From assembly GCA_033812955.1 (NCBI GenBank), contig JAPXSS010000006.1, positions 1,911-65,910 on the forward strand: a DNA stretch of 64,000 bases, given 5' to 3'. Below, piece by piece: positions 7,073 to 30,014 of the stretch (positions within the stretch are counted from its first letter, which is position 1; each line of letters begins with the position of its first letter). This DNA is from Syntrophobacteraceae bacterium. GTDB taxonomy: Bacteria > Desulfobacterota > Syntrophobacteria > Syntrophobacterales > Syntrophobacteraceae. Made by a program: the position numbers and the translations under genes. A model generated the notes under the pieces. The model was given only the letters and a program-made list of their open reading frames with translations, did not search any database and was not told the origin of the DNA.

Positions 7073-7642
7073 ATGCAGCAGACTGGTTTAAGTCCTGACT
7101 TTAATTTCCTGGAAGAGGTGGAAGCCGCTGGACCGTTTAACGTTTCCGAGTGCTTCCAATGCCGCAAGTGCACCAATGGATGCCCAGCCACATTCGCCAT
7201 GGATCTTTTCCCTGATCAGGTCATTCGCTTGGCGATCCTGGGCTTGAAGGAGGAGGTCCTGCGTTCGAAGACAATTTGGGTGTGCGCCTCCTGCGAAACC
7301 TGTACCACGCGCTGTCCCAACGGCGTGAGGATCGCGGAGGTGATGGATTTCTTTAAGGAAATGGCAGTGATGCAGGGGGCAGCCATCCCACAGCGCCAGA
7401 TCATTACGCTCCACCGGACGTTCCTGGACAACTTCCGAAACACCGGGCGCGTCTTTGAGGGGGGCCTGATGGGAGCCTATATGCTCCGGAGCGGTCAGAT
7501 CGGCAGCATGCTCAAGACGGGAGCGTGGAAGGACCAGCTTCAGTTGGGATGGAAGATGTTCCAAAAGGGTCGTATGCCTCTTTTTCCTACATCCATTGAA
7601 GGAAAGGCTGAGGTCGCTGCCATTCTTCGTAGATCAAAATAG
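7073..7642 (+). CDS. hdrC: heterodisulfide reductase subunit C
   Basis: Two 4Fe-4S motifs (CFQCRKCTNGCP, CASCETCTTRCP). Size and position immediately upstream of hdrB fit HdrC. Confidence 0.85.
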   Translation: MQQTGLSPDFNFLEEVEAAGPFNVSECFQCRKCTNGCPATFAMDLFPDQVIRLAILGLKEEVLRSKTIWVCASCETCTTRCPNGVRIAEVMDFFKEMAVMQGAAIPQRQIITLHRTFLDNFRNTGRVFEGGLMGAYMLRSGQIGSMLKTGAWKDQLQLGWKMFQKGRMPLFPTSIEGKAEVAAILRRSK

Positions 7643-11500: not shown

Positions 11501-12984
11501 GGGTCATTGTAGCGTCGTGTACACCTCGTACCCATGAACCGCTCTTCCGCAGTACCCTGCGGGAAGCGGGGTTGAATGCCTATTTGTTCGACTTGGCCAA
11601 CATCCGGGAACAGGATTCCTGGGTCCATATGTCGGAACCGGAGGCGGCAACGAACAAGGCCAAGGACCTCGTCCGCATGTCGGTGGCTCGCGCCGCTTTG
11701 TTGGAGCCGTTGAGCGACTATACCTACGAAGTCGTACAGCGGGGACTGGTGATTGGCGGTGGCTTGACTGGGCTCACTGCAGCCCTCTCCATTGCGGAAC
11801 AGGGGTTCCCTGCCGTTCTGGTGGAACGTAGTGCGGAACTTGGAGGGAATTCCAAGACCCTTTACTATACCGACGAGGGATCGACGCCTTCCAAGTATGT
11901 ACAGGACCTGATCAAGCAGGTGGAAGCTAATGCGCTCATTACAATCCATAAAGAAGCCGAGGTGAGCGCCATTACCGGAAGCTGCGGCAATTTCACGAGT
12001 ACGATTACCCACAATGGCAACACCGAGGAGCTGAATCACGGGGTGGTGATCGTGGCGACCGGTGGCCAGGAATACAAGCCGACGGAGTACCTCTACGGGC
12101 AACACCCGCAGGTGATGACGCAGCATGAGTTTGAAGCGCTACTGCAAAACGAGCCTGCACGAGCCGCGAAGTACCAACGGGTCGTCATGATTCAGTGCGT
12201 GGGGTCCCGGGAACCGGATAATTCCTACTGTAGTCGCGTCTGTTGTACGGCTGCCATGAAGAACAGCCTGAAGCTCAAGGCTCTGAACCCCAAGGCGCAG
12301 ATATCGGTGCTCTATCGCGACATCCGCACCTTCGGCTTCAAGGAACTCACTTATCAGGAGGCCCGGCAGAAAGGGGTCCGGTTCTTCCGCTTCGAATATG
12401 AAAACAAGCCTAAAGTCGAAGCCATTGGTGAGCGTTTGCAGGTGACGGTGGCCGATGCTCAGCTTAACCGCCCGTTTCGTCTGGATGCCGATCTGCTCGT
12501 TTTGAGCGCTGCCATTCGGCCGCGGGAGGAGGGGAAGAAGCTGGGCGAGACGCTGCGCGTACCGTTCGATCAGGATGGGTTCTTCCTGGAGGCGCATTTG
12601 AAACTGCGCCCTCTGGATTTTCCGACCGCAGGCTATTTTGTCTGCGGTCTGGCAAAGGGCCCCTCCTTTGCCAACGAAGCTATTGCGCAGGCGAAGGGCG
12701 CGGTTTCCCGGGCACTTGCCATTCTGTCCAAGAAGGAAATCGTCAAAGAAGGCATGATGACCCAGATCAATCCCGAGCTCTGTCGTGCTTGTGGGGAATG
12801 TGAGCAGACTTGTCTTTTCAACGCAGTGAAAGTAACGGATATGCCCGACGGCCGCCGCCAGGCCATGGTCGACCTGGCGCTCTGTACCGGCTGTGGCGCC
12901 TGCAATGTAGCTTGCCCCACCGGCGCAGCATCGCTGGCTCATTTCCGCGACACGCAGGTGAATGCAGAGATTCGGGCCCTATAG
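8557..12984 (+). CDS. hdrL: large HdrA-type fusion protein (HdrL-like): HdrA-like FAD domain interrupted by a GltD/NfnB-like NAD(P)H oxidoreductase module, followed by a second HdrA-like unit
   Basis: N-terminus VIGGGIGGIQCALD...[18 protein letters not shown] (Cys at 8737-8739). GltD-like insert around 9028-10230 (ICPHPCEEACRRG, VAIIGSGPAGLTAAYFLA, IIVGGGDVAIDAAR, VFAGGDA). Then [21 protein letters not shown], a second GGGLTGL FAD site and a second IQCVGSRE, with C-terminal 2x CxxCxxCxxxCP. Confidence 0.85.
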   Translation: MAGAQKVGAVTVIGGGIGGIQCALDIANSGFKVYLVEEQPNIGGVMSQLDKTFPTNDCSSCMMGPKLVEIATHRNIDILTRTTVESISGEPGDFTLKLNHHPRYIMLDKCTGCGECAKVCPINMPADFNLGLNERQAIYRNYPQAVPAGFSIDKKDKSPCTNACPNSVNAHGYVALIAQGKYVEAMKVIMRNLPLPGVIGRICPHPCEEACRRGEVDSPLSICALKRFVADQVDIEELPIPEIEKRDEKVAIIGSGPAGLTAAYFLALDGYQVTIFEALPVAGGMLRVGIPDYRLPPEVLEKEIRAITRLGVDIKFNTRLGKDFTIDELQAQGYKAVYIGIGAHQSQKLNVPGEDAEGVMHGVEFLRRANLHESNLVKGRVIIVGGGDVAIDAARVATRLGASKVSIFYRRTRTEMPARENEIEDALAEGVDIQYLTAPAEVVVKDGRVSGMKCIRMELGEPDTSGRRRPVPISGSEFEVQAELIIPAIGQAPDSLFLAEKEGLTLTRKGTIEADAITLATNKDGVFAGGDAQTGPWIAIGAVAHGREAAISISRYLKGEDIAAGREPLDFPQEDFRPIPEEIEKVPRAEQATIPMAKRKSTFDEVELGLTEEQAKAEAQKCLDCMVCCECLQCVDACLAKAINHDMHLEVEEIKTGAVIFAPGFKPFDARTKPELGYGLWPNVITSLEYERILSAAGPFGGHIQRLSDGKKPHRIAWIQCVGSRDSSIGNDYCSYVCCMYATKQAMITKEHEADIDTTIFYIDMRAQGKGFDRFYERARDETGVRFVRSMVSRVLPVPETDQLMVTYSDDKSVLREEVFDMVVLSIGLCAHPSTGELAKTLGVGLNSFGFCSSDTMDQVATSKPGIYVCGVSQGPKDIPDTVQQSSSAAACATALLAEARGTMITPPPVYEERDITGEKPRIGVFVCHCGINIAGVVDVEAVVQYAMTLPGVEYATRAMFTCSTDNQKEIKRLIDEHRLNRVIVASCTPRTHEPLFRSTLREAGLNAYLFDLANIREQDSWVHMSEPEAATNKAKDLVRMSVARAALLEPLSDYTYEVVQRGLVIGGGLTGLTAALSIAEQGFPAVLVERSAELGGNSKTLYYTDEGSTPSKYVQDLIKQVEANALITIHKEAEVSAITGSCGNFTSTITHNGNTEELNHGVVIVATGGQEYKPTEYLYGQHPQVMTQHEFEALLQNEPARAAKYQRVVMIQCVGSREPDNSYCSRVCCTAAMKNSLKLKALNPKAQISVLYRDIRTFGFKELTYQEARQKGVRFFRFEYENKPKVEAIGERLQVTVADAQLNRPFRLDADLLVLSAAIRPREEGKKLGETLRVPFDQDGFFLEAHLKLRPLDFPTAGYFVCGLAKGPSFANEAIAQAKGAVSRALAILSKKEIVKEGMMTQINPELCRACGECEQTCLFNAVKVTDMPDGRRQAMVDLALCTGCGACNVACPTGAASLAHFRDTQVNAEIRAL

Positions 12985-13041
12985 CAGGTGATGTTTGGAT
13001 TGAGGCTGTTTGCCCTGAGCTGATAACCGAGAGGAATGTCA

Positions 13042-13482
13042 ATGGCTGAAACATTCGAACCCAAAATTGTAGCCTTCGTGTGTAACTGGTGCGCCTATGC
13101 CGGCGCCGATCTGGCTGGGGTGGGTCGCATGCAGTACCCCACCAACGTGCGTCTCATCCGTTTGATGTGCACGGGCAGAATCAATCATGCCTTCCTGCTG
13201 AACGCTTACCAGGCAGGAGTGGACGGAGTCATGGTATCCGGGTGACACATCGGGGACTGCAATTACCTGGGAGGTAATGAAAAGTGTCTGAAGGTGGTTG
13301 AGGATACCCATAAAGTCCTCCGGCTGTTGGGTGTGGACGAACGGTATCTTTTTCTGAAATGGGTTTCAGCTTCGGAAGGGCCGATTTTTGCCGAGACGAT
13401 TCGAAATTACACCGAACTGTTGAAGCAACTGGGTAGAAATCCGCTGGCCGAGGCGCATAGCAGTGTCGCGAGTGCGGCCTGA
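13042..13482 (+). CDS. mvhD: MvhD-like [2Fe-2S] electron-transfer protein, selenoprotein (1 in-frame UGA at 13243-13245)
   Basis: Track ORFs 13036..13245 and 13294..13482 share one frame, separated only by TGA. Joined: [26 protein letters not shown]...[21 protein letters not shown]... The UGA sits where MvhD has the Cys of GCHxGxCHY. RBS AGAGGA lies before ATG 13042. Confidence 0.85.
13244..13288 (+). promoter_or_regulatory. putative bacterial SECIS hairpin for mvhD copy 1
   Basis: Core stem ATTACC(13262-13267)/GGTAAT(13273-13278), loop TGGGA. Outer pairing GACAC(13244-13248)/GTGTC(13284-13288). Confidence 0.5.
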
Positions 13483-13536
13483 CCGGGCTGTACGCAGACG
13501 GCTGCCGACGATTCCTCATAAACCGAATATGCCCTG

Positions 13537-14676
13537 ATGGAAGAGGCTATGATGATCAGTCTGGAACAAATCAGTTATTGCATGGAGTGTGGGGTCTGCA
13601 CGGGAAGTTGCCCCATCAGCAGATCGTTGACCTCTTTTTCGCCACGCCAGATGATAAAACGCTCGTTGATGGACCATGACGAGACGGTGGTGCAGGGGCG
13701 GGAGCTCTGGGCCTGCCTGACCTGCGCGCGCTGCAGCACCCGCTGTCCGGCGCAGATCGACTTCCCGGAGTTTGCCAGGGCCCACCGCGAACTGGCGCGC
13801 AAGGGAGGGAACCTGCCCCAGTTGAGCCATCACGGAACACTTCAGGCGATCGCAGCACTGCAAACCGCTAACATCAAGCAGCAGCGGACCGATTGGGCGA
13901 CCGAGGCGGGGACCTTCAAGGACAAGGGGGATGTTTTCTGTTTTGTTGGCTGCGCCCCGTACTTCGAAGCCGTCCTGAAGCCGGGTGAGGGTTCCCTGGA
14001 AGTGCCCAAAGCGGTTCTAGGGATACTCAACCGCATGGGCATCGAACCGGCCATCAGCAACGATGAGCGCTGCTGCGGGCATGATGCTCTGTGGAGCGGA
14101 GACGAGGCCACGTTCAAGCAGCTGGCGGCCATGAACCTCGAAGTCATCCGCGGCTCCGGGGCGAAGACGGTGCTGTTCAGTTGTCCCGAAGGCTATACCA
14201 CCTTCAAAAACCAGATCCCCAAGTACTTTGGCGATCTGCCCTTTGAGGTCCTTCACGTGACCGAATTCTTCGCCCGTGAGTTGCCTGCCTCCGGCGTGAA
14301 ATTCTCCCCCTGTACCAACAACGGGAAAGGCGGGGTGACGTATCAAGACCCGTGCCGGCTGGGTCGCGTGGCCGGGATCTACGAGGCGCCGCGGGAGCTG
14401 ATTCGGCTTGTTCCCGACGCCAGGTTCGAAGAAATGCCGCGCAACCGCGAAAATGCTCTTTGCTGCGGTACCAGTGCCTGGATGGAATGCTCCAACTGTT
14501 CTAAATCCATCCAGATCGAGAGGCTGCAGGAAGCGCGTGACGCCGGAGCCCACACGCTCATTACGAGCTGTCCCAAATGCCGCATCCATCTGAGTTGCGG
14601 TCAGCAGAACACTGATTTGACCGACCTGGAAGTGGTCGATCTCTTCGCTTTTCTTCTACAGCACATTGAATCGTGA
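13537..14676 (+). CDS. HdrC/HdrB fusion-type Fe-S oxidoreductase (2x[4Fe-4S] plus two CCG domains; HdrD/GlpC-like)
   Basis: CMECGVCTGSCP and CLTCARCSTRCP, then FVGCAPYF...CCGHD and YQDPCRLGR...CCGTS. The start could instead be ATG 13549 or 13552. Confidence 0.75.
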   Translation: MEEAMMISLEQISYCMECGVCTGSCPISRSLTSFSPRQMIKRSLMDHDETVVQGRELWACLTCARCSTRCPAQIDFPEFARAHRELARKGGNLPQLSHHGTLQAIAALQTANIKQQRTDWATEAGTFKDKGDVFCFVGCAPYFEAVLKPGEGSLEVPKAVLGILNRMGIEPAISNDERCCGHDALWSGDEATFKQLAAMNLEVIRGSGAKTVLFSCPEGYTTFKNQIPKYFGDLPFEVLHVTEFFARELPASGVKFSPCTNNGKGGVTYQDPCRLGRVAGIYEAPRELIRLVPDARFEEMPRNRENALCCGTSAWMECSNCSKSIQIERLQEARDAGAHTLITSCPKCRIHLSCGQQNTDLTDLEVVDLFAFLLQHIES

Positions 14677-14687
14677 CCAATGGAGGT

Positions 14688-14753
14688 TTCTCAAGATTAC
14701 TTGATCATGAAGTGCACGAATATGTTATAGATAACATTTTGCAATCTTGAGAA
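14688..14753. promoter_or_regulatory. nested inverted repeats in the hdrA copy-1 upstream region (candidate operator or terminator)
   Basis: Perfect 11-bp arms TTCTCAAGATT (14688-14698) and AATCTTGAGAA (14743-14753) enclose an AT-rich perfect palindrome ATGTTAT-AG-ATAACAT (14722-14737). Confidence 0.3.
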
Positions 14754-14871
14754 TACGTTTACAGTGGGGTTACTGGGCGTTTTCGGTGGAAACGCCCCAC
14801 CGTCACCACTGTATGGTTACAAGAGCGAACTTCGATAAGGATGATTTGAAACCCAAAAGGAGACCCTATTC

Positions 14872-16404
14872 GTGAAGCGGGATGTGTTGGTGATTGGGGG
14901 TGGTATTGCAGGCATTCAGGCATCTTTGGACCTGGGTGAAATGGGGTTTCAGGTGCATCTCGTGGAACGGTTGCCAAGTATTGGCGGTAAGATGGCGCAG
15001 CTTGACAAGACGTTTCCCACCAATGATTGCGCCTTGTGAATTCTCGCGCCAAAGCTGATGGATGTCGGTCGACATCCCAACATCCGGTTGCTGGCCTACT
15101 CGGAAGTGGAAAAAGTGGAGGGGGAAATCGGGGATTTTCACGTCACGGTGCGCAAGAAGGCCCGTTATGTTGATGAAAATAAATGCACGGGGTGTGGGAC
15201 ATGCGCCGAGAAGTGTCCGACGGTAACTTCCGACGTCTACAACCTCGGGCTTGGCAAAGCCAAGGCCATCTATAAGTACTTTGCCCAAGGGATTCCATCC
15301 GCTTATACCATCGACGCCAATGCGTGCCGACAGCTCCAGGGGAAGAAGTGCGGTGTTTGCGCCAAGGTCTGTCAGGCCGGCGCCATCGATTACAAGATGC
15401 AGGAAAAGATCGTCGAACTCGACGTTGGCGCCATCATTGTGGCGACCGGCTACGATCTCTTCGATGCTCGCAGGATTCCTGAGTATGGCTATGGGAGGCT
15501 GCCCAACGTGGTCACGGCCCTGGAATTCGAGCGGTTCCTTTCGGCCAGCGGACCGACCCACGGGCACGTCTATCGCCGTTCGGACCTGGCCCTGATGGAT
15601 GCTCTGCCCGAGGCGGAAAAGAGCCAGCAGAAAGCGGCCAGGGGCCTTGAACAGTTGGAAAAGAAAGGCGGGATGAGTTCCGCCGATTTTTATACCAAGT
15701 ATGAGGCCGGTGAACTGCAAGGCGAAGAGTACGACAAGTGGGCCGAGCAGGTTAAGGTTTCCCGCGCCGCCACAGAAAAGCTCGATGCCATGAAGGCGAA
15801 AGTCGAGCAGATCGAGGGTGCGCATCGGCTGGCCTTCATCCAGTGCGTGGGCTCCCGCGACCTTCGCTTCAACCAGTACTGTTCCGGCTTCTGCTGCATG
15901 CACGCCATCAAGGAGGCGATCATTGGCCTGGAACATGATCGGGAAGCGGAAGTCTATATTTTCGGGATGGATATCCGTGCGGTCGGGAAGAATTTTGAAG
16001 AGTATCGAAATCGGGGAGCGAACGAAGCCGGCATCAAATTCGTTCGAAGCCGGGTGGCCGAGATCTACGAGGACAAGGATCACACTCCAATCCTCGTTTA
16101 CGAAGACACCAAGGAGCGCCGGGTGAAGCAGCTGCCGGTAGATCTGGTGATCCTGGCCACCGCCTGCCAGCCCAGCGAAGGGTTAGTGAAGCTAGCGGAG
16201 ATTTTGGGCATTAAGACCAACAACTTTGGCTTCATCGACACCGCCTCATATCTGCCTCTCGATACCTCACGGCCGGGCATCTTCGTTTGCGGTTGTGCCC
16301 AAAGCCCAATGGATATTCCCGAATCGGTTGCTCAGGCGAGCAGTGCCGCTGCCATGGCAGCCCAGGTGTTGTCAGGCCCTGAGACCGAATGTCTCGCCTC
16401 CTGA
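14872..16404 (+). CDS. hdrA: HdrA-like FAD/Fe-S flavoprotein, selenoprotein (UGA at 15037-15039), copy 1
   Basis: Own translation from GTG 14872 (RBS AAGGAGA 14857-14863): [68 protein letters not shown]..., in frame with track ORF 15058..16404. The UGA replaces the second Cys of the HdrA TNDCxxC motif (HdrL has Cys there). Confidence 0.85.
15060..15077 (+). promoter_or_regulatory. putative SECIS hairpin for hdrA copy 1
   Basis: GGATGTCG-GT-CGACATCC, perfect 8-bp arms starting 21 nt after the UGA. The apical pairs probably open to give a larger loop. Confidence 0.4.
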
Positions 16405-16418
16405 AGGAGAACATGTCA

Positions 16419-18140
16419 ATGACTGGTGATACCGAGAAGACCGCAGAGCTCAACGGCAAGGAAGTCAAGACGGGCGTTTTCGTCTGTCACTGTGGTTCCA
16501 ATATTGCGGGCCTCCTGGATTGCGAGGCGCTCGTCGACTATGCATCCAAGCTGCCCAACGTGGCTTATGCCAAGAACAATCTCTACACCTGTTCCGAAGC
16601 GGGCATTGCCGAGATCATGAATGCCATTAAGGACCATGGGCTCACCCGCGTCGTGGTGGCATCCTGTTCGCCCCGCACCCATATGCCGCTCTTCAAGAGT
16701 GCCTGCGCCGAGGCCGGTTTGAACCCCTACCTCTTTGAAATGGCCAACATTCGGGACCAGTGTTCGTGGGTGCACATGCACGAAAAGAGTGAGGCCAACC
16801 TCAAGGCTCGTGATCTGATCCGGATGGCGGTGGCCAAAGCCGAATATCTTCAGCCGCAGCAGGACATTGAAGCCTCGCTGGTGCGCAAAGCGCTCGTTAT
16901 CGGTGGGGGAATTGCCGGTCTGTCGGCTACCGTAGCACTGGCCAATATGGGAACGGAAGTGATCCTGGTGGAGAAGGCGGCCGAGCTTGGCGGGCTGTTG
17001 CGGCGTATCAACCGCGTCGGTCCCCGTGGCGACAAGGCTTCCGAGTTGCTCAGGAAACTGGTTGAGCAGGTCCAGGCAAAGCCGCAGGTGACCACGTTGT
17101 TGGAGAGCGAGCTGGCTGCGGTCGGCGGCGTGGTGGGCAATTATGAGGTCACGTTGCGCGGGAGAGATGGCGCGGAGCGGAAGGAGACCGTCGGGTGCAT
17201 CGTGGTGGCCACGGGGGCGGTGCCGTTCATCCCGGAAGGAATGTATGGGTATAACGGGAAGAACGTGATCACCCAGATTGACCTGGAAGAGAAGCTCCGG
17301 GATGGGACCCTCGAGGCCAAGCGGATCGTCATGATTCAGTGTGTGGGCGCCAGGTCGCCCGAGCGCACCTATTGTGGAAGGATTTGTTGCCAGACTGCCA
17401 TTAAAAACGCTCTCTACATCAAGGAGCTCAATCCCGAGGCGTATGTTCACATCCTCTATCGCGACATTCAGATGTATGGCACTGACAACGAACGGATGCT
17501 TTGGGATTCGCGCGGCAAGGGCGTTCGCTACGACATCTATACCGAGGAACGGCCGCCGATGGTGAAGGACGGGGTGGTGGAGGTTTATCAACCCCTGTTG
17601 GGTGAGGTGGAAGAGATTCCGTTTGATCTCCTGGTACTTTCGACCCCGCTGCTGGCACCGTCAGATTCGGCGGCGGTCGCCAACTTGATGCGCATCCCTG
17701 TCGATCAGAACGGCTTCTATCTCGAAGCCCATGCGAAGCTTCGTCCTCTGGACTTTGCCAGCGACGGAATCTTCCTCTGCGGCACGGCGCGCTATCCGGC
17801 AACGGTCAGGGAAGCCCAGGCCCAGGGGTTGGGTGCCGCCTCGCGCACCAGTACGGTACTCTCGAAGGAGAAACTTGTTTTCAGCGCGCTCGTCTCTTAT
17901 GTTACCGAAAAGTGTGACGGCTGTGCTTTGTGTATCGATTTGTGTCCGTATTACGCAATCTCCACTGAAGAGTATGAGGATGAAGGGGGCCGGAAGCACA
18001 AGCGAGTTAAGTCGGACAACATCCTTTGCAAGGGATGCGGGGTGTGTGCGGCCACCTGTCCCAAAGGAGGCATCATTGTGCACGGATTCACCGGGGAGCA
18101 GATTCGGGCCCAGGTGGATGCCGCTCTCGAAGCGGTCTAG
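16419..18140 (+). CDS. second HdrA-like subunit (N-terminal Cys-cluster domain, FAD domain, C-terminal 2x[4Fe-4S] ferredoxin domain), lacks the TFPTNDC motif, copy 1
   Basis: [74 protein letters not shown] 16404-16410 favours ATG 16419 over 16389 or 16413. Collinear with the C-terminal half of HdrL. Confidence 0.8.
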   Translation: MTGDTEKTAELNGKEVKTGVFVCHCGSNIAGLLDCEALVDYASKLPNVAYAKNNLYTCSEAGIAEIMNAIKDHGLTRVVVASCSPRTHMPLFKSACAEAGLNPYLFEMANIRDQCSWVHMHEKSEANLKARDLIRMAVAKAEYLQPQQDIEASLVRKALVIGGGIAGLSATVALANMGTEVILVEKAAELGGLLRRINRVGPRGDKASELLRKLVEQVQAKPQVTTLLESELAAVGGVVGNYEVTLRGRDGAERKETVGCIVVATGAVPFIPEGMYGYNGKNVITQIDLEEKLRDGTLEAKRIVMIQCVGARSPERTYCGRICCQTAIKNALYIKELNPEAYVHILYRDIQMYGTDNERMLWDSRGKGVRYDIYTEERPPMVKDGVVEVYQPLLGEVEEIPFDLLVLSTPLLAPSDSAAVANLMRIPVDQNGFYLEAHAKLRPLDFASDGIFLCGTARYPATVREAQAQGLGAASRTSTVLSKEKLVFSALVSYVTEKCDGCALCIDLCPYYAISTEEYEDEGGRKHKRVKSDNILCKGCGVCAATCPKGGIIVHGFTGEQIRAQVDAALEAV

Positions 18141-18199
18141 AGTCGTTGGCGGAGTCTGTTCAGTAGCTCGTTGATTTTCTGAGAAAGGAGTTTCCCTCG

Positions 18200-18631
18200 A
18201 TGTCTGATGATTTCAAACCGGTCATCTTAGGGTTCTTGTGTACGTGGTGAGCATACGCTGCTGCTGACCTGGCTGGGGTCAGTCGTATGCAGTATCCGTC
18301 GAACCTGCGGATAGTGCGGGTCATGTGTTCGGGGATGGTCAGTCCTGACATTGTGGTGCGTGCCTTGGACAAAGGCGCAGATGGCGTTCTGGTGGTTGGG
18401 TGACACCTCGGCGAATGTCATTACCTGGAAGGTAATCAAAAGGCAAACGCTCGGCAAGAAGCGACCAAGATTGTCCTCGAAAACCTTGGAATCGATACCG
18501 ACCGGTTTCTAACCGCTTGGGTATCGTCGGCGGAAGCTCCCAAGTTTGCGGAGGTGGTTACAGCTTATGTGAACCATATCAAAGAGTTGGGGCCAAATCC
18601 TCGGAAGCAGCAAAAAGCGGAAGCCGCCTGA
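18200..18631 (+). CDS. mvhD: MvhD-like protein, selenoprotein with two in-frame UGA codons (18248-18250 and 18401-18403)
   Basis: Own translation from ATG 18200 (RBS AAAGGAG): MSDDFKPVILGFLCTW-U-AYAAADLAGVSRMQYPSNLRIVRVMCSGMVSPDIVVRALDKGADGVLVVG-U-HLGECHYLEGNQK...PNPRKQQKAEAA*. No plus-strand ORF is listed in the track for this gene, because the two UGAs cut it into sub-60-aa pieces. Confidence 0.85.
18251..18290 (+). promoter_or_regulatory. putative SECIS hairpin (first UGA of mvhD copy 2)
   Basis: GCATACG(18251-18257)/CGTATGC(18284-18290) outer stem. CTGACC(18264-18269)/GGTCAG(18277-18282) inner stem, loop TGGCTGG. Confidence 0.5.
18420..18436 (+). promoter_or_regulatory. putative SECIS hairpin (second UGA of mvhD copy 2)
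   Basis: ATTACC/GGTAAT stem, loop TGGAA. Same element as downstream of the equivalent UGA in mvhD copy 1. Confidence 0.5.
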
Positions 18632-18676
18632 TCATGAGGATATCTCGCGGAGGCACCGAAACTTAAGAGGTGTTAC

Positions 18677-19603
18677 ATGGCAGCTAGGGTAGCGGAAGAG
18701 TGGTTGAACGCCTGTGCGGGTTGTGAGATCTCGGTGGTAGATCTGGGTGAGCGTTTGCTGAAGGTATTGGAGCTCGTCGAGTTCGTTCACATCCCGGTGC
18801 TGATGGATCACAAATATTACGGTCAGTTGGGGGAGGGAAAGCATATTCACATCCCCGAAGCGGATGTGGGAATCATCAGTGGCAGCATCCGCAATACTGA
18901 GCATCTCGAAGTGGCCGAGGAGATGCGCAAGCAGTGCAAGATCATTGTGGCCTTGGGCACCTGTGCGACTCACGGGGGGATCCCGGCCTTGGCCAATTCC
19001 TACCAAAACCAGGAGATGTATGATCGGTATTACTCAACCGAGACTACCGATATACCTAACTCTTTTCCAACCGATGGGCTCCCGCCGTTGCTGGACGCCT
19101 GCTACGCGTTGGATGAAAAGATCAAGGTGGACGTCTACCTGCCCGGTTGTGCTCCCCATCCGGACCAAGTTTTTGTCGGGCTGGCGGCTCTTCTCGGGCT
19201 CATGCCGCTGGCACTGCCTGACAAGAGTGTCTGCGATACCTGTCCCACAGTCAGAGAGGGGAAGGGACAGGTTAAGCAACTACAGCGATTCCTGCATTCG
19301 CCCCATTATGGAGCGCCCGACGAACCGTTGGATAAGATGCGCTGCCTATTGGAGCAGGGGTTTCTCTGCATGGGACCAGTGACCAAAGCCGGCTGCGGTG
19401 GTGACGGGGTTGTTCCGCGCTGCATCATTGCCCGGGTGCCGTGCCGGGGCTGCTATGGGCCAGTGGAGCACGACGGCAACCAGCTCCTGGACATGCTCAA
19501 TGCGCTGGCGTCCAATGGCATCGATATCAAGTCTCTGCCCGAGTATGCTTCTCTGTTGCGTTTTTCCGGGGCCCACCATCTGCTGACGCCGCGGAAGAAA
19601 TAG
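18677..19603 (+). CDS. mvhG: [NiFe(Se)] hydrogenase small subunit, group 3c (MvhG-like)
   Basis: NACAGCEISVVD, ALGTCATHGGIPA, multiple C-terminal Cys clusters (CDTCP, CMGPVTKAGCGG, CRGC). No Tat signal, consistent with a cytoplasmic enzyme. Confidence 0.85.
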   Translation: MAARVAEEWLNACAGCEISVVDLGERLLKVLELVEFVHIPVLMDHKYYGQLGEGKHIHIPEADVGIISGSIRNTEHLEVAEEMRKQCKIIVALGTCATHGGIPALANSYQNQEMYDRYYSTETTDIPNSFPTDGLPPLLDACYALDEKIKVDVYLPGCAPHPDQVFVGLAALLGLMPLALPDKSVCDTCPTVREGKGQVKQLQRFLHSPHYGAPDEPLDKMRCLLEQGFLCMGPVTKAGCGGDGVVPRCIIARVPCRGCYGPVEHDGNQLLDMLNALASNGIDIKSLPEYASLLRFSGAHHLLTPRKK

Positions 19604-19618
19604 AGGGAGGATGAGAAT

Positions 19619-21064
19619 ATGGCGCGAGTAATCAACATTGCTCCCATAACCCGCATCGAGGGGCACGGCTCGGTCGAGATCCAGCTTGATGACGGGGGGA
19701 GTGTAAGCAGTACCAAAGTGCACTACATGTCGCTACGGGGCTTTGAGAAGTTCATCGAGGGCAAGCCTGCAGAAGAAGTGCCCCGGATTGTGACCCGCAT
19801 TTGCGGTATTTGCCCGTGGCATCACCACATGGCTTCGAACAAGGCTGTGGATCGCTGTTTTGGCGTGACCCTGCCACCGACTGGGTGGAAGCTGCGGGAA
19901 TTTGCCCAGACCATGGCCCATGCTGAAGACAAGCTGCTGCACTTCTACTTTCTAGCGGCGGCGGACTTTGTGATGGGACCGGACGCCCCCTATGAGGTGC
20001 GAAATGTTATCGGGGTTGCCAAAGCCAATCCCGAGCTGGCCACCAAAGCGGTCCAGATGCGCTACATGGCGAAAATGATTCTTGAAAAACTGGGCGGCAA
20101 GGCCATTCATCCCCATGCCGCGGTAGCAGGCGGTTTCTGCCGGCCCCTGCTCAATTCTGAACGGCTGGAATTCCTGGAGAAACTCAAGGTGCTGCTGGAA
20201 TTCTCGCACGATACCCTCAAGTTTGCCAAAGCGAACGTGTTTCCCAAATACCTCGATGTGGTCAAGACCCTTGGGGTCATCAACACCGGTTTCCTTGGCA
20301 CTGTGGATGAGAAGGGCAACCTTGCCCTCTTCGACGGCAAGCTGCGCCTGATGAAAGCCGACGGCTCCTTCGTGGATTTCAGTCCCCAAGACTACATCGA
20401 TTATCTGGGCGAAGCAGTGGTACCCTTCTCGTATGGCAAGTTTCCGTATGCCCGCTCTTGGAATGAGGGCTTTTCTCTCGATATCGACAATCCCAAGGGC
20501 ATCTACCGGTGCAATTGTCTTGCCCGGATCAATGCCTGCGACGCAATCTCGACGCCGCGGGCCCAGGCGGAGCTGGAAGAGTTTCGCAAGGCTTTCGGGC
20601 GCCCGGCGCAGTTAACCCTGCTCTATCACTGGGCGCGGCTGATCGAGGATGTGTATGCCTACGAGCATGCCATCGAGCTGCTGGAAGACCCGGCAATTTG
20701 CGACACGGACATTCGGGCAAAGGTGGAACCCAAGGCAGGAAGAGGGGTGGGCTGTGTGGAAGCTCCCCGCGGGACCCTGATTCACGACTACACCACGGAT
20801 GACAACGGTTTGATCAAGCACGCCAACCTCATCGTGGGGACGACGCACAATCTGGGCCCCATTAATATGAGCGTCAATCAGGCCTCCAAGATGTTGATCA
20901 AGAACGGTGAGGTGAACGAGGGCATCCTCAACATGATTGAGATGTCGATACGCGCCTACGACCCCTGAATTAGCTGCGCCACTCATTGCCTGGATGGCAA
21001 TAATGGGTTCTCGATCAAAGTCATCGACGCCAAGGGTGAAATCATCACCAGGCGGCCTGCGTAG
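19619..21064 (+). CDS. mvhA: [NiFeSe] hydrogenase large subunit, group 3c (MvhA/Vhu-like), selenoprotein (UGA at 20966-20968)
   Basis: RIEGHG and RICGICPWHH N-terminal Ni-site motif. Track ORF stops at TGA 20966, but reading on gives AYDP-U-ISCATHCLDGNNGFSIKVIDAKGEIITRRPA* (TAG 21062-21064). That is the DPCxxCxxH C-terminal Ni-site motif with Sec in the first position. Confidence 0.85.
20985..21001 (+). promoter_or_regulatory. putative SECIS hairpin for mvhA
   Basis: ATTGCC/GGCAAT stem with loop TGGAT, 17 nt after the UGA. Confidence 0.45.
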
Positions 21065-21129
21065 CATTGAAGGGGCAATGCCCCTGAGGCAGGGGGGGTT
21101 AGGAGTTAACCGGACCTGAGTAAAGAAGC

Positions 21130-21164
21130 GGGGGTAGTTCTCAGCGAGCTACCCCCCTGGTTTT
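21130..21164 (+). terminator. rho-independent terminator-like hairpin after mvhA
   Basis: GGGGGTAG(21130-21137)/CTACCCCC(21149-21156), 11-nt loop, followed by CTGGTTTT. Confidence 0.5.
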
Positions 21165-21188
21165 CCGGGAAAGAGCTTTAGCGGGGGT

Positions 21189-21821
21189 TCAGCTTATCAC
21201 CCACACCGCGATGTCCTGCGCCACCTGCGTGAGCTTGGCGGCAATTCGCCCGATCTGGAATTCTTCAACCTCGGATACGCCGCGCCGACCCACGACAATG
21301 GTCCCGTAGCGGCCGTTGCGGGCTTCATTGAGAAGGGCCGTTGACCGGCTGACCACTCCCGAGATCACCTTGGTGTTGATTTTGGCTGGATCGGCTCCCA
21401 TGGCGGTCAAGGATTTGGAGAGTTTTTCGAACATCGGCTAGATCGCGTCCTGAGCATCATCCTGGAGCTTCTGGAGGATGTAAGTCTCGTCTTCCTGTGG
21501 AAATCTAACCACATGAGCCGGCGTTACCTGCGGTTCACCCTTGCCCAACATCCTGCCGACGAAATTCGCGGCCCGCATGGATCCCCAGGAATTGTCCACA
21601 CTCGCAAGGATTTTGCCTCCCTTCGATTTTCCGCCTACCAGATAAACCGTCGGGCCAACCACATTCAACCGTACCTTGCTAGCAATGCTGTCATGAATGG
21701 TATCATCCGCGGCCCCGATGCCCCTACGTCCCATGGCCACAAGGTCGCAGCCGAACCGGCACTCTTCGAGGATGTCTCTGGCAAAGCCGTTCTTGCGCTT
21801 TTGAATGAGGATTATCAGTTT
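21189..21821 (-). pseudogene. remnant of a tandem universal stress protein (UspA family) gene: 5' truncated, with an in-frame TAG
   Basis: Track ORFs 21438..21740 and 21189..21434 share one frame, split by TAG (21440-21438). Together they give one Usp domain (...GRYGTIVVGRRGVSEVEEFQIGRIAAKL...). The frame upstream reads ...ARDILEECRFGCDLVAMGRRGIG (C-terminus of another Usp domain) but hits a stop at 21824-21822 with no start codon. Confidence 0.5.
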
Positions 21822-21890
21822 CTAATATATGCTTCAACAGACATACAGCGTGATTAGCCGTGATTGTCCTCAAAATCAGGCAAAGAATTG

Positions 21891-21919
21891 TTGATATCCA
21901 CAAAAAAATGAAGTATATT
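21891..21919 (+). promoter_or_regulatory. candidate sigma70-type promoter facing hdrA copy 2
   Basis: TTGATA(21891-21896)-N17-TATATT(21914-21919) in the less GC-rich spacer. It would give a ~430-nt leader. Confidence 0.3.
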
Positions 21920-22359
21920 GCTATCGATTGTGAATGTTCACCCTCAAATTCTCCGCAGAAGCTCGGTGGAAAAAGCTGACAATTATGGGCGCCTCCTCGG
22001 AAAAGCTGCTTTTCGTATGTCTTCGCACAGGGCGGAGAAATATGATGGGCTGGGAGAGGGTGGAAGTTTCTCAACCACCGCGAGTCAAAATTGGCACCCT
22101 CCGATCCCACGCATCCAGCCTGGGGACGACTCCGATAACGCGCCAAAATGGTCTGTATAATGAGGCATGGATTGGAATGAGGTCGTCGTCAACCTCATTC
22201 GCCAGGCTACGCTTTGTCTCCACCCGGCGTTGTCGAGGTTGGGCTCGAGGAGGACGGATGCTTGTGGCTCCAGAAGGCAGGGAGACCTTGTCTCCGATGT
22301 TCTTTTGAAATAGGTCGAACAACGACGGATGGTTTGAAACCCAGAAGGAGACCCTACTC

Positions 22360-23889
22360 GTGAATCGCGACGTGTTAGTGATTGGGGGAGGAATTGCGGG
22401 CATGCAAGCCTCTCTGGACCTGGGTGAAATGGGATTCCAGGTGCATCTGGTGGAGCGATTGCCAAGCATTGGCGGCAAGATGTCGCAGCTTGACAAAACG
22501 TTTCCCACCAATGATTGCGCCCTTTGAATCCTGGCGCCGAAGCTGATGGATGTCGGTCGACATCCCAAGATCCGGTTGCTGGCCTACTCAGAGATTGAAA
22601 AAATTGACGGTGAAATAGGGAATTTTCACATCACGGTTCGCAAAAAAGCCCGTTATGTCGATGAAAAGAAATGCACGGGTTGCGGGACGTGTGCGGAAAA
22701 GTGTCCGACGGTAACTTCCGACGTCTACAACCTCGGGCTTGGCAAAGCCAAGGCCATCTATAAGTACTTTGCCCAAGGGATTCCGTCCGCCTATACCATC
22801 GACGCCAATGCGTGCCGACAACTCCAGGGGAAGAAGTGCGGTGTTTGCGCCAAGGTCTGTCAGGCCGGCGCCATCGACTACAAGCAGCAGGAGCAGATCA
22901 TCGAGTTCGAGGTGGGGGCCATCATTGTGGCCACCGGTTATGATCTCTTCGATGCTACGAAAATCCCGGAATATGGTTACGGGCGACTGCCCAACGTGGT
23001 CACCGCCCTGGAATTCGAACGGTTCCTCTCCGCCAGCGGCCCCACGCATGGTCACGTCTATCGCCGTTCGGACCTGGCCCTGATGGATGCTCTGCCCGAG
23101 GCGGAAAAGAGCCAGCAGAAAGCGGCCAGGGGCCTTGAACAGTTGGAGAAGAAAGGCGGGATGAGTTCCGCCGATTTCTATGCCAAGTATGAGGCTGGTG
23201 AACTGCAAGGCGAAGAGTACGATAAGTGGGCCGAGCAGGTTAAGGTTTCCCGCGCCGCCATGGAAAAGCTCGAGACCATGAAGGCGAAAGTCAACCAGAT
23301 CGAGGGCGCGCATCGGCTGGCCTTCATCCAGTGCGTGGGGTCCCGCGACATTCGCTTCAATAAGTACTGTTCAGGCTTTTGCTGCATGCATGCCGTCAAA
23401 GAGGCCATCATTGGCCTGGAACACGACAGGGACGCCGAAGTCTACATATTCGGCATGGATATCCGCGCGGTCGGAAAGAACTTCGAGGAGTACCGCAATC
23501 GTGGTGCCGGTTCCGGGATCCAGTTCATCAGGAGCCGGGTGGCCGAAATTTACGAGGACAAAGATCACACTCCCATCCTCGTTTATGAGGACACCAAAGA
23601 GCGGCTGGTGAAGCAAATGCCGGTGGACCTGGTGATTCTGGCCACCGCTTGCCAGCCCAGTGAAGGGATAGTCAAAATGGCGGCCACGGTGGGTATCGAA
23701 ACCAACGATTTCGGCTTCATCAAGACCGCCTCTTACCCGCCGCTCAGCACCTCGCGGCCGGGAGTCTTCGTCTGCGGCTGTGCGGTAAGTCCCATGGATA
23801 TTCCTGAATCGGTTGCTCAGGCCAGCAGTGCCGCGGCCAGAGCAGCTCAGGTTCTGTCAGGTTCTGAGACCGAACGTCTCGCCTCCTGA
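22360..23889 (+). CDS. hdrA: HdrA-like FAD/Fe-S flavoprotein, selenoprotein (UGA at 22525-22527), copy 2
   Basis: Own translation from GTG 22360 (RBS AAGGAGA): [68 protein letters not shown]..., in frame with track ORF 22546..23889. Same geometry as copy 1 (Sec at codon 56). Confidence 0.85.
22548..22565 (+). promoter_or_regulatory. putative SECIS hairpin for hdrA copy 2
   Basis: Identical GGATGTCGGTCGACATCC element at the same offset as in copy 1. Confidence 0.4.
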
Positions 23890-23903
23890 AGGAGAACAAG
23901 TCA

Positions 23904-25622
23904 ATGAGTGGTGATACGGAGAAGACAGCAGAGTTCAACACCAAGGATGCACGGATCGGCGTTTTTGTCTGTCATTGCGGTTCCAATATTGCGGGCCTCC
24001 TGGACTGCCCGGCCTTGACCGAATATGCATCCGGGCTGCCCAACGTGGTTTTTACCAAGAATAATCTCTACACCTGTTCCGAAGCGGGCATTGCCGAGAT
24101 CATGAACGCCATTAAGGACCATGGGCTCACCCGCGTCGTGGTGGCCTCCTGCTCGCCGCGCACCCATATGCCGCTCTTCAAGAGCGCGTGCGCCGAGGCG
24201 GGGCTCAATCAGTACCTGTTCGAAATGGCCAACATTCGGGATCAGTGCTCCTGGGTTCACGCGCAGGATCAAGAATTGGCCCAGATCAAAGCCATGGACT
24301 TGATCCGGATGGCGGTGGCCAAAGCCAGGTTCCTGGAACCGGCTGAGGACATCGAGTCCTCCCTGGTGCGCCGTGCCATGGTCATTGGTGGCGGGGTGGC
24401 CGGGCTGTCGGCGGCCGGCGCTCTGGCGGACATGGGGATGGAAGTGATCCTGGTGGAAAAGCAGGCAGAACTCGGCGGCCTGCTGCGTCGGATCAATCGC
24501 ATTGGCCCGGGCGGCGAAAAGGCTTCCGAGCTGCTGGGTATGCTGGTGGCGGACTTTAAGTCCAAGCCAAGGGCCAAGGCGCTGCTGGAGAGTGAAGTGT
24601 CGGCAGTGAGTGGGGTGGTTGGCAATTACGAGGTGACCATTCGCGACAAAAGTGGTGAGATGCAGACGGAAACGGTGGGCTGCATTGTCGTTGCCACCGG
24701 AGCGCTGCCGTTCACTCCCGAAGGACTGTACGGGTACAACGGAAAGAATGTGATCACCCAGATTGAACTGGAAGAGAAGCTTCGGGACGGCACCCTCGAC
24801 GCCAAACGGGTGGTCATGATCCAGTGCGTTGGTGCCAGATCGCCTGAGCGGACCTATTGTTCGCGGATCTGCTGCCAGACGGCTATCAAGAACGCTCTCT
24901 ACATCAAAGAGCTCAATCCCGAGGCTCATGTCCATATCCTCTATCGTGACATCCAGATGTACGGCACCGACAACGAACGGATGCTGTGGGACTCACGCGG
25001 CAAGGGCGTTCATTACGATGTTTACGATGTTGAGCGGCCGCCGGTGGTGAAGGACGGGGTGGTTGAGGTTTATCAGCCGCTGCTGGGTGAGGTGGGGCAG
25101 ATTCTTTTCGATCTGCTGGTGCTCTCGACTCCCCTGGTGGCCCCTGCAGATGCGCAGGACGTTGCCAACCTGATGCGCATTCCCGTGGACCAAAATCGTT
25201 TCTACCTGGAGGCCCATGCCAAACTGCGGCCGTTAGATTTTGCCACCGACGGGGTCTTCCTGTGCGGGACAGCACGCTATCCGGCAACCGTAGGGGAAGC
25301 CCAGGCCCAGGGGCTGGGGGCGGCGTCGCGGGCTGCGACCGTGCTGTTCAAAGACAAGCTGGTAGCCAGCGCCTTGATCTCTCAGGTGACGGAGCGTTGC
25401 GACGGCTGTGGTGCCTGTGTCGAGCTCTGCCCTTACCATGCGCTCAGTCTCGAGGAGTACGAACAAGACGGACGGAAACTCAAGCGCAACAAGGTCGACA
25501 AAATGTTATGCAAGGGGTGCGGAGTGTGCGCCGCCACCTGTCCCAAAGGGGGCGTGGTGGTCTGTGGATTCACTCGCACGCAGCTCCAGGCCCAAGTGGA
25601 TGCAGCGCTCGAAGCGGCTTAG
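23904..25622 (+). CDS. second HdrA-like subunit, copy 2
   Basis: Collinear paralogue of 16419..18140 (VFVCHCGSNIAG, VIGGGVAGLSA, MIQCVGARS, CDGCGACVELCP, CKGCGVCAATCP). RBS AAGGAGA lies 8 nt upstream. Confidence 0.8.
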   Translation: MSGDTEKTAEFNTKDARIGVFVCHCGSNIAGLLDCPALTEYASGLPNVVFTKNNLYTCSEAGIAEIMNAIKDHGLTRVVVASCSPRTHMPLFKSACAEAGLNQYLFEMANIRDQCSWVHAQDQELAQIKAMDLIRMAVAKARFLEPAEDIESSLVRRAMVIGGGVAGLSAAGALADMGMEVILVEKQAELGGLLRRINRIGPGGEKASELLGMLVADFKSKPRAKALLESEVSAVSGVVGNYEVTIRDKSGEMQTETVGCIVVATGALPFTPEGLYGYNGKNVITQIELEEKLRDGTLDAKRVVMIQCVGARSPERTYCSRICCQTAIKNALYIKELNPEAHVHILYRDIQMYGTDNERMLWDSRGKGVHYDVYDVERPPVVKDGVVEVYQPLLGEVGQILFDLLVLSTPLVAPADAQDVANLMRIPVDQNRFYLEAHAKLRPLDFATDGVFLCGTARYPATVGEAQAQGLGAASRAATVLFKDKLVASALISQVTERCDGCGACVELCPYHALSLEEYEQDGRKLKRNKVDKMLCKGCGVCAATCPKGGVVVCGFTRTQLQAQVDAALEAA

Positions 25623-25802
25623 AGTTTGGCAGGGTGTTGAAAAATCTTCCCCAACGTCTCCCCGGCGAAACCCGGAGTACAGAAAACCATGCGGAACCTG
25701 GATGTCGGTTTTCACCGGCATGACGGACAGAGCCTTCGATGCACTTTTTCAACAGCCTGCTAGAGGAGTACTCACAAACAGGTAAGAAAGGAGTTTTCCC
25801 CC

Positions 25803-26222
25803 ATGTCCGATGAGTATGTTCCCACCATTGTTGGATTCCTCTGCACGTGGTGAGCGTACGCCGCTGCTGACCTGGCTGGGGTCAGTCGTTCGCAGTACCC
25901 TCCCAATCTGCGTATCGTCCGGATGATGTGCTCCGGGATGGTCAGTCCCGACCTGGTGGTACGCGCCCTGTCCAAAGGTGCCGACGGCGTGCTGGTGCTG
26001 GGATGCCACCTGGGTGAGTGTCACTACATGGAAGGCAATTTCAACGCGGCCAAGCGGATGGCGGTAATCAAGAATCTGCTCGCCTTTACCGGGATCGACC
26101 CGGCGCGGCTCAGGGTGGAATGGGTATCGTCCGCCGAAGCGCCCAAACTGGTCGAGATTGTTATCGACTTCACCAACCAGATCAAAGATCTCGGACCCTC
26201 CCCGTTGAAGGCTGTGGCCTGA
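25803..26222 (+). CDS. mvhD: MvhD-like protein, selenoprotein (one UGA at 25851-25853; Cys at the second site)
   Basis: Own translation from ATG 25803: MSDEYVPTIVGFLCTW-U-AYAAADLAGVSRSQYPPNLRIVRMMCSG...GVLVLGCHLGECHYMEGN..., in frame with track ORF 25923..26222. Confidence 0.85.
25854..25893 (+). promoter_or_regulatory. putative SECIS hairpin for mvhD copy 3
   Basis: CTGACC(25867-25872)/GGTCAG(25880-25885), loop TGGCTGG. Outer GCGTACG/CGTTCGC with one mismatch. Homologous to the 18251-18290 element. Confidence 0.45.
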
Positions 26223-26256: not shown

Positions 26257-27081
26257 ATGAGAAAGGCTCTTTTTATGGTTGAAAAGATCAAAGCAAGAGT
26301 TCAGGAACTGTTGGCGTCCGGCAAGATCAAAGGTTTCCTCGGTCTCCGCGAAAGGTACGGCCACGTCGGCCCTTACCTTTTTACCGATCCCAATGACCTC
26401 GACGGAATGTCCGTCGGCGATGGGGCAAAACCCGGCGATACCCGCTATTCGCTCAACAAACAACTCATCAGGCTGGTCCATTCTTATCAGGACGACGCTT
26501 TCGGCGTGTTGGTGCGCGGCTGCGATGAGCGCGGGCTGAAAACCCTGATTGCCTCCAACCAGCTCGACCCGGCACGGGTGGTTTCCGTCGGTTTGGCCTG
26601 CCCCCAGGAACTGGCCGATGCCTGCGAGTGTATGAAGCCCTTTCCCGATGAGTACGTTGCGGGTGAGCCATCCGAAGGGCGGCCTTTTGCCGGAGTGGCT
26701 CAGATCGAGGCCATGGCCATGGAGGAGCGTTTCAAGGTCTGGCTGGCCGAGTTCGCCAAATGCGTCAAGTGCTATGGCTGTCGCGATGTCTGTCCGATGT
26801 GCTACTGCAAGGAATGCACCCTGGGAGGCAAGGATTTTGTGAACGTCGGCACCCTGCCGCCGCAAAATCCCATCTTCCACATCACCCGCGCGCTCCACAT
26901 GGCAGGAAGATGCATCGACTGTGGGCTGTGTAATGAAACCTGCCCTGCGGATATCCCACTACGAACGCTCTACAAGAAGATCGCAGACCTTGTTGACCAG
27001 GAGTACCAGTATCGGCCGGGCTATGGCGAACCCAAGGCCAGCCTGACCATTCACGGCCTCGGTGATTCCCCACAACACTGA
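26257..27081 (+). CDS. 2x[4Fe-4S] Fe-S protein, putative electron-transfer partner of the formate dehydrogenase
   Basis: CVKCYGCRDVCPMC and CIDCGLCNETCP ferredoxin-type motifs in the C-terminal half. The N-terminal half was not recognised. The role is inferred only from its position between mvhD and fdhA. Confidence 0.5.
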   Translation: MRKALFMVEKIKARVQELLASGKIKGFLGLRERYGHVGPYLFTDPNDLDGMSVGDGAKPGDTRYSLNKQLIRLVHSYQDDAFGVLVRGCDERGLKTLIASNQLDPARVVSVGLACPQELADACECMKPFPDEYVAGEPSEGRPFAGVAQIEAMAMEERFKVWLAEFAKCVKCYGCRDVCPMCYCKECTLGGKDFVNVGTLPPQNPIFHITRALHMAGRCIDCGLCNETCPADIPLRTLYKKIADLVDQEYQYRPGYGEPKASLTIHGLGDSPQH

Positions 27082-27094
27082 GAGGAGCATTGGT

Positions 27095-29970: not shown

Positions 29971-30014
29971 CACGGAACCTCCCGGTTTCCCCTCAAGCCT
30001 GATGGCGATAGTTA

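Follow-up and report, generated by a model that had tools for sequence, protein, structure and literature searches.

The window analysed here, meaning the whole stretch of 64 kb of contig JAPXSS010000006.1 from a Syntrophobacteraceae bacterium, contains at positions 13042-26222 a locus of three paralogous MvhD genes in which cysteine (Cys, C) and selenocysteine (Sec, U) are mixed at two positions. The state of each gene is written below as site 1/site 2, and all three genes lie on the plus strand. Copy 1 (13036..13482, 148 aa) is C/U, with a TGC codon for residue 19 at 13090-13092 in the context CNWCAY and an in-frame TGA for residue 70 at 13243-13245 in the context SG-U-HIGDCNY. Copy 2 (18200..18631, 143 aa) is U/U, with in-frame TGA codons at residue 17 (18248-18250, CTW-U-AY) and at residue 68 (18401-18403, VG-U-HLGECHY). 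Copy 3 (25803..26222, 139 aa) is U/C, residue 17 being encoded by TGA (25851-25853, CTW-U-AY) and residue 68 by TGC (26004-26006, LGCHLGECHY). An earlier note on this DNA had read the same three states from the letters alone, and translation with codon look-up bears that reading out to the base, the quoted peptide contexts being exact.

All three copies match the family PF02662 (MvhD/FlpD) over the entire profile (positions 1-123 of 123), with scores of 151, 173 and 179 bits (curated cut-off 22.3) and E values of 1.9e-44, 3.7e-51 and 4.5e-53 for copies 1, 2 and 3, respectively. In their mutual alignment the copies are free of gaps over both sites, so the positions are homologous, as the earlier note had held. 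The five conserved Cys columns of the family (C13, C16, C42, C67 and C72 in M. marburgensis numbering) are occupied by Cys or Sec in every copy. The gene order is also that of the MvhD family, since each copy lies directly after an hdrA-type gene and beside an electron-donor module. A motif scan in six frames found no fourth, C/C copy of MvhD in the window.

Selenocysteine codons and their hairpins

By far the best reading of the four TGAs is that they are Sec codons, at which Sec would be inserted. The coding frame and the family-invariant residues run on across all of them, and each in-frame UGA aligns to Cys with conserved flanks on both sides. Homologous loci were collected from one genome per species and from metagenomes, giving non-redundant sets of 117 genes under a strict motif and 218 genes under a looser one; among the 120 metagenome matches, L102 was spurious and a few contigs stop inside the gene, and the others are MvhD. 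In the 117 as well as in the 218 homologues, both site columns hold Cys or UGA only. Two Logan assemblies of different runs (L001 and L002), independent of each other, contain an identical copy 2. The JGI contig L143 carries a U/U and a U/C gene as a pair arranged as in the window, and its flanking HdrA, MvhG, MvhA and FdhB share 96-98% protein identity with those of the window, except for the HdrA part adjoining the U/C gene (78% against the query from the copy 2 module). TGA also stands at site 2 in about 20 orthologues of copy 1; these orthologues are all C/U, and the best relatives of copy 1 (76-82% identity) come from Syntrophobacter and from metagenome-assembled genomes (MAGs) of Syntrophobacteraceae. 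The recurrence of the same codons in independent assemblies and orthologues shows that the TGAs are neither a product of chance nor sequencing errors. The proposal that they encode Sec thus holds as the best reading, on the strength of the homology to Cys and of the association between hairpins and UGA described below.

The window contains four further in-frame TGAs at classical Sec positions, in the partner genes for HdrA (two copies), MvhA and FdhA, which brings the in-frame Sec codons to eight within the same 16 kb. TGA is also the true terminator of HdrA-N and FdhA, so that it acts as a stop here unless it is recoded. Because these four additional Sec genes belong to classical families, they lend indirect support to the presence of the Sec machinery in the genome.

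The bacterial Sec insertion sequence (bSECIS) is a stem-loop within the coding region, directly 3' of the UGA and with a G in its apical loop, at a distance in the range of Zhang & Gladyshev (2005). In the window, a hairpin of this kind follows each UGA of the three genes, starting 12 nt past the UGA at site 1 and 16 nt past it at site 2, with the loops UGGCUGG and GGR, respectively. All four hairpins lie on the plus strand. The site-2 hairpins are AUUACCU-GGG-AGGUAAU in copy 1 (13262..13278) and AUUACCU-GGA-AGGUAAU in copy 2 (18420..18436); the site-1 hairpin of copy 2 is GCUGACC-UGGCUGG-GGUCAGU (18263..18283), and the same 21 nt recur in copy 3 (25866..25886). By analogy with the E. coli fdhF paradigm, each coding hairpin 12-16 nt past its UGA would recruit SelB and the Sec-tRNA. 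Since every UGA has its own hairpin, copy 2 would need two independent recoding events within 143 codons. An archaeal-type two-Sec gene, with a 3' untranslated region (UTR) SECIS shared by both codons, was considered for copy 2 and rejected, as each UGA has its own coding hairpin and the next gene begins 45 nt past copy 2.

Across the homologues, every UGA gene of a given type has the hairpin belonging to that site, and in Cys genes it is degraded or absent. At site 2, the pattern ATTACC-N5-GGTAAT, forming a stem of 6-7 bp with a G-rich loop, lies 16 nt past the UGA in 32/32 UGA genes. A stem with at least six of the seven pairs is found in all 32 of these genes versus 7 of the 84 Cys genes. 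Moreover, four synonymous third positions within the stem do not vary among the 32 UGA genes, and the same positions agree in only about 50% (three positions) or 18% (the GGT codon) of the Cys genes. At site 1, the heptapeptide ADLAGVS that follows the codon is written in 67 different nucleotide strings in 68 Cys genes and in 20 strings in 71 Sec genes. The string found in the window, GCTGACCTGGCTGGGGTCAGT, is common to 20 non-redundant Sec genes with protein-core identities down to 56%, and among the genes with GCTGACCTGGCTGGGGTCAGT the third-position identity is 1.0 in the seven hairpin codons versus 0.57 in the next seven. Other Sec clades have two different hairpins at the site-1 place, of which CCTYGCYG-GTT-CGRYRAGG shows compensatory changes.

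Two groups of U/C genes elsewhere in the survey have hairpins of their own. A large environmental clade of metagenome contigs (L084-L202) has the protein signature CHWUAYGAAD...GGCRLNECNY, with Asn in place of the Gly of the G-x-C motif, and carries the site-1 hairpin CTGGA-GTT-TCCAG. A second U/C clade, which is Fdh-linked, has a covarying 8-bp hairpin.

Partner modules and the two sites in the protein

The MvhD chains of solved structures (7bkb_F, 9sw2_D, 5odc_D and 8rvu_F) match copy 2 with phmmer E values of 1e-42 to 1e-45. In this alignment site 1 corresponds to Cys16 and site 2 to Cys67 of M. marburgensis MvhD, the latter being followed by His68 and Asp71; at residue 71, copy 1 has Asp and the other two copies have Glu. 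Cys16 has been described as an additional conserved cysteine located between the cluster and FAD, and His68 and Asp71 adjoin an unknown ligand held by Cys202 and Cys205 of HdrA (PMC13580544). In the preprint on BamF (bioRxiv 10.64898/2026.04.10.717634), the equivalent of Cys16 is a disulfide-forming cysteine near the cluster, and BamF itself has Sec19 at this residue. In HdrA of M. maripaludis, Sec197 belongs to a Cys-Sec pair near FAD (PMC13518236).

Site 1, which aligns to the additional cysteine Cys16, is therefore probably no ligand of the [2Fe-2S] cluster, a role that the earlier note had proposed to check. The cluster needs four of the five conserved cysteines, and Cys16 is the additional one, so that by elimination the ligand set would be C13, C42, C67 and C72, and site 2 (Cys67) would be a cluster ligand; an explicit list of the [2Fe-2S] ligands is absent from the reviews and the later structure papers. 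Sites 1 and 2 coincide with the pair of classical Sec positions in archaeal VhuD. Mapped in this way, site 1 would be a non-ligand cysteine by the cluster that faces the CxxC or CxxU pair of HdrA on the way to the bifurcating FAD, and site 2 would be a cluster ligand beside His68 and Asp/Glu71, which contact the HdrA cysteine pair.

Each [2Fe-2S] adaptor would serve one HdrA- or HdrL-based electron-bifurcating module, the modules being those of the HdrL/HdrD-like proteins, the MvhAG [NiFeSe] hydrogenase and FdhAB. All partner genes listed here lie on the plus strand. Module 1 comprises an HdrC-like gene (7073-7642) and an HdrB-like gene with a CCG domain (7658-8518) upstream of HdrL (8557..12984, 1475 aa), followed by MvhD copy 1 and a gene for an HdrD/GlpC-like Fe-S protein with CCG domains (13537..14676), which starts 55 nt past copy 1. 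HdrL is HdrA-like and contains a GltD/Nfn-like, NAD(P)-binding insertion, and its flavin-side motif FPTNDCSSC contains Cys and no Sec. In module 2, a split HdrA (14872..18140; N part 14872-16404, C part 16389-18140) with a Sec TGA at 15037-15039 in the N part (FPTNDCAL-U) precedes MvhD copy 2, MvhG (18677-19603) and MvhA, the [NiFeSe] large subunit (19619-21064), which has a Sec TGA at 20966-20968 (DP-U-ISC). Module 3 has the order split HdrA (22360..25622; N part 22360-23889, C part 23904-25622), MvhD copy 3, an FdhB-like Fe-S subunit (26257-27081) and the formate dehydrogenase FdhA (27062-29131), with Sec TGAs at 22525-22527 in HdrA-N (CAL-U) and at 27500-27502 in FdhA (HCARL-U-H). The identification of these genes and their domains agrees with the partners named in the earlier note, namely HdrL, the hydrogenase (MvhG/MvhA) and Fdh.

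The split-hdrA pairs of modules 2 and 3 share 82% DNA identity over 3.27 kb (14872-18143 versus 22360-25625, megablast), suggesting that the module was duplicated. The mvhD copies 2 and 3 fall into separate subclades, MvhG-linked and Fdh-linked, respectively. The megablast identity between the two modules ends before the mvhD genes.

Some further features were observed in and around the modules. The HdrD/GlpC-like gene at 13537-14676 is a complete open reading frame (ORF) without TGA and may represent a further Sec/Cys difference among relatives. On the minus strand at 21189-21740, a universal-stress-protein-like (Usp-like) frame has an in-frame TAG (DAQDAI*PMFEKL) in the middle of an apparent single Usp domain. 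An ATG lies 4 nt past this TAG, the sequence is identical in the independent contig L001, and the frame may represent a pseudogene, two separate genes or a case of TAG recoding. The region 30001-32000 has a G+C content of 0.645 and an AT skew of -0.219, versus about 0.57 and about 0 elsewhere; it overlaps a minus-strand ORF (30015-32789, 924 aa) whose sole Pfam match is DUF6600.

Distribution of Sec/Cys states and competing explanations

In the looser set of 218 genes, which results from biased sampling, 102 genes are U/C, 21 are C/U, 15 are U/U and 80 are C/C, so that each state with Sec is common among the relatives. Two states lie adjacent to each other on the contigs L003, L005, L006, L125, L143, L163, L168 and L187. 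HdrL-linked genes are C/U in every genome sampled, including Syntrophobacterales and Desulfobacterales-like MAGs. MvhG-linked genes comprise five U/U, two U/C and one C/U, and FdhB-linked genes comprise eight U/U and at least 11 U/C. As relatives with the same partner vary, the Sec/Cys state does not follow the partner module, and the idea that each combination is paired to its own partner fails for MvhG- and FdhB-linked genes, the HdrL-linked genes alone being constant.

A link was also seen between site 1 and HdrA. In the window, HdrL with its CxxC accompanies a site-1 Cys, and both HdrA copies with CxxU accompany a site-1 Sec. In the survey, as raw counts, site-1 Sec lies beside HdrA CxxU in 19/19 cases when the nearest motifs are taken (17/17 plus two) and in 38/41 under a looser neighbourhood rule. 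A strict rule that site-1 Sec always occurs with HdrA CxxU was thus discarded in favour of a tendency. The converse fails, since HdrA CxxU is also found beside MvhD genes that are C/C or C/U.

A neighbour-joining (NJ) tree with bootstrap was built from about 125 columns. In this tree the HdrA-linked Sec genes form a clade (90% bootstrap), copy 3 groups with the genes of L143 and L003 (100%), and the U/C gene of L083 is nested in the U/U pair of L168 and L005 (100%). Some U/C genes keep the site-2 hairpin after the Cys codon, with 7/7 pairs in L006 and 6/7 in L003. The simplest history would start from a U/U ancestor of the HdrA-linked clade, with Sec replaced by Cys repeatedly at site 2 and once at site 1 (L078). 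U/C genes inside U/U clades and the hairpins kept in L006 and L003 fit the view of the earlier note that the locus is a snapshot of ongoing Sec/Cys exchange.

We consider it very probable that the three copies are genuine bacterial selenoprotein MvhD/VhuD adaptors, one per bifurcating module, and that their mixed states mainly reflect lineage history. According to this explanation, the HdrL-linked paralogue would have been C/U for a long time, and the HdrA-linked paralogues would descend from a U/U ancestor through repeated losses of site-2 Sec, each followed by decay of the SECIS, copy 3 being one such loss. Several results weigh against this account. Six of the seven site-2 pairs are invariant in the 33-sequence alignment, so that covariation rests on the seventh pair (U-A in 17, A-U in 6, unpaired in 10). 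Single-sequence folding with shuffles gave z values of -0.1 to -2.6 for UGA contexts and of -1.7 and +0.5 for Cys controls, without separation, and a scan of the whole window with Rfam at the gathering threshold yielded no match. The case for SECIS elements is therefore comparative and not thermodynamic, and no curated SECIS model applies. A tRNA scan of the 64-kb window found no tRNA, and neither tRNA-Sec nor sel genes are located there. The survey is biased, as the genome scan demanded Cys at one site and the metagenome scan demanded TGA at site 1, and Fisher tests overstate the independence of sequences that are related by descent. Several inner nodes of the NJ tree are weak (4-60% support), which leaves the history of losses at the level of inference. 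In addition, copy 3 is without a site-2 hairpin remnant (4/7 pairs, equal to background), so that its change from Sec to Cys is deduced from its relatives.

Three other explanations were weighed against lineage history. That the TGAs are sequencing or assembly errors, pseudogene stops, or Trp or Gly codons under an alternative genetic code is exceedingly improbable. Gene callers do split or truncate these genes, and GWH appears at site 2 in ten of the best 120 database matches; however, the TGAs recur unchanged across independent assemblies and dozens of orthologues, they align only to Cys with the frame and the invariant residues continuing past each of them, and position-specific hairpins accompany them. 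TGA also ends genes in the window, and the organism, a member of Syntrophobacteraceae with 57% G+C, belongs to no code-4 or code-25 lineage. It is also very doubtful that the paralogues serve a graded selenium economy, varying in Sec so that some modules can run when selenium is scarce, as with Vhu and Vhc of Methanococcus. Methanococcus has selenium-regulated pairs of Sec and Cys isoenzymes for precisely this subunit, and D. autotrophicum has both Sec and Cys mvhD paralogues, but all three copies in the window contain Sec, with no C/C copy among them, and the partner genes (both HdrA, MvhA and FdhA) need Sec as well, so that no module in the window is selenium-independent.

Functional tuning, by which each Sec/Cys combination would have been selected to fit its donor module through the potential or kinetics of the cluster and the neighbouring thiol or selenol, deserves more weight than these two but still appears unlikely. 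It would account for the constant C/U state of the HdrL-linked paralogue in every genome sampled and for the near-constant company of site-1 Sec and HdrA CxxU (38/41 under the looser rule), together with the CSSC of HdrL, the partner of copy 1, and both sites lie at the surface where MvhD hands off to HdrA. Yet MvhG-linked and FdhB-linked genes differ in state with the same partner, the nesting of U/C genes in U/U clades with decaying hairpins resembles neutral or cost-driven loss, and Cys-only MvhD works with hydrogenase and Fdh in methanogens. Lineage history with genuine Sec thus remains the explanation that we prefer. A more speculative proposal, to which we give little credence at present, is a selenium relay in which electrons would pass from a Se-ligated [2Fe-2S] cluster through a free site-1 selenol to the Cys-Sec pair of HdrA, so bridging the 22-28 A between the cluster and the bifurcating FAD, with the paralogues, whose site-1 Sec stands almost exclusively beside HdrA CxxU, as functionally distinct relay settings; if this were true, the C/U, U/U and U/C paralogues of one organism would form a natural test set.

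Relation to known systems and significance

Archaeal VhuD is a close parallel to copy 2. The two Sec of VhuD are 50 codons apart (PMC4989117), and a citation given in that paper dates the two-Sec archaeal form to 1997. VhuD of Methanococcales and Methanopyrus, and also of Lokiarchaeota, belongs to PF02662 and has two Sec at the same positions as copy 2; its gene adjoins hdrA, and the protein is an adaptor for hydrogenase and Fdh. In contrast to the window genes, which have one coding hairpin per UGA in the bacterial mode, archaeal VhuD has one SECIS in the 3' UTR for both UGAs. The described archaeal forms are U/U or, in Vhc, C/C, and are not mixed. As a protein copy 2 would work like VhuD, but its gene is not of the archaeal type.

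Among bacteria, FrhD/MvhD homologues with Sec at either of the two archaeal positions were reported by Zhang & Gladyshev in 2007, who remarked on this flexibility (PMC1976440). The alternation between C/U and U/C, and with it this flexibility, is therefore already published. Syntrophobacter fumaroxidans was reported to have 31 selenoproteins, including eight FrhD (=MvhD) and seven HdrA, and the same study lists both Sec-to-Cys and Cys-to-Sec conversions for the FrhD family and remnant SECIS elements for other families, e.g., FdhA (PMC1794560). In D. autotrophicum, Sec and Cys mvhD paralogues stand beside each hdrA or hdrL. The known bacterial selenoproteins of this type, namely those of S. fumaroxidans (eight), Syntrophus, Desulfobacterium autotrophicum (mvhD1, 2, 3 and 5) and the Olavius delta-1 symbiont, resemble those of the window in being deltaproteobacterial, in having many paralogues, in lying beside hdrA or hdrL and in carrying Sec at one or the other position; copy 2 and 15 non-redundant relatives differ from them in having both Sec. 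For a selenoprotein family this familiar in bacteria, the mixed states are a variation to be expected.

Two further relatives help to place the copies. BamF of the class II benzoyl-CoA reductase from Geobacter metallireducens is likewise an MvhD-type [2Fe-2S] adaptor, with Sec19 at site 1 and next to the HdrA-like BamE, and its authors propose a selenenylsulfide intermediate (bioRxiv 10.64898/2026.04.10.717634). It differs in its extra domains and in its length, which is greater by more than 100 residues, and it has a single Sec (U/C-type) and an NADH/ferredoxin-confurcating partner. The Cys-type MvhD/ElpC proteins of Methanothermobacter, Methanothermococcus and Methanospirillum (9SW2, 5ODC, 8RVU and 7BKB) are close relatives of copy 2 that share the five Cys positions, His68 and Asp/Glu71 but are all-Cys and without selenium.

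In a protein database search with copy 2, the best 120 matches consisted of Cys-type homologues, none above 66% identity, and of ten entries that read Trp at site 2. The closest full-length entries are no more than 66% identical because the true orthologues are truncated in the databases. In the ten G-W-H entries (P0001 and nine others), a gene caller has rendered as Trp what is the site-2 TGA in C/U-type genes.

Taken together, the paralogy, the presence of Sec and the snapshot of exchange stand from the earlier interpretation, and three points call for correction: site 1 is probably no ligand, the state is not partner-specific and the flexibility was known before. The biology is unsurprising; the literature already covers the family, the two Sec positions, the use of either one in bacteria and the turnover between Sec and Cys. 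Modestly new, as judged against the literature, is the bacterial U/U gene with two internal hairpins, of which 15 non-redundant examples were found; in a review of 2026, multi-Sec FrhD/VhuD are still assigned to archaea. The window adds the occurrence of three states within 13 kb and the mapping of the two sites onto recent structures. The value of the locus is chiefly practical, as a natural set for comparison and as a lesson for annotation, in that densely recoded loci such as this are split or truncated by standard gene callers.

Single electrons enter HdrA-type flavin-based electron bifurcation through the adaptor MvhD. Papers of 2025-2026 describe the electron path from the [2Fe-2S] cluster of MvhD to the flavin as still unresolved and point to Cys16 (Sec19 in BamF) and to the CxxC or CxxU motif of HdrA. 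The C/U, U/U and U/C copies of this locus, standing beside Cys- or Sec-type HdrA partners, provide a ready comparison set for the step from cluster to FAD.

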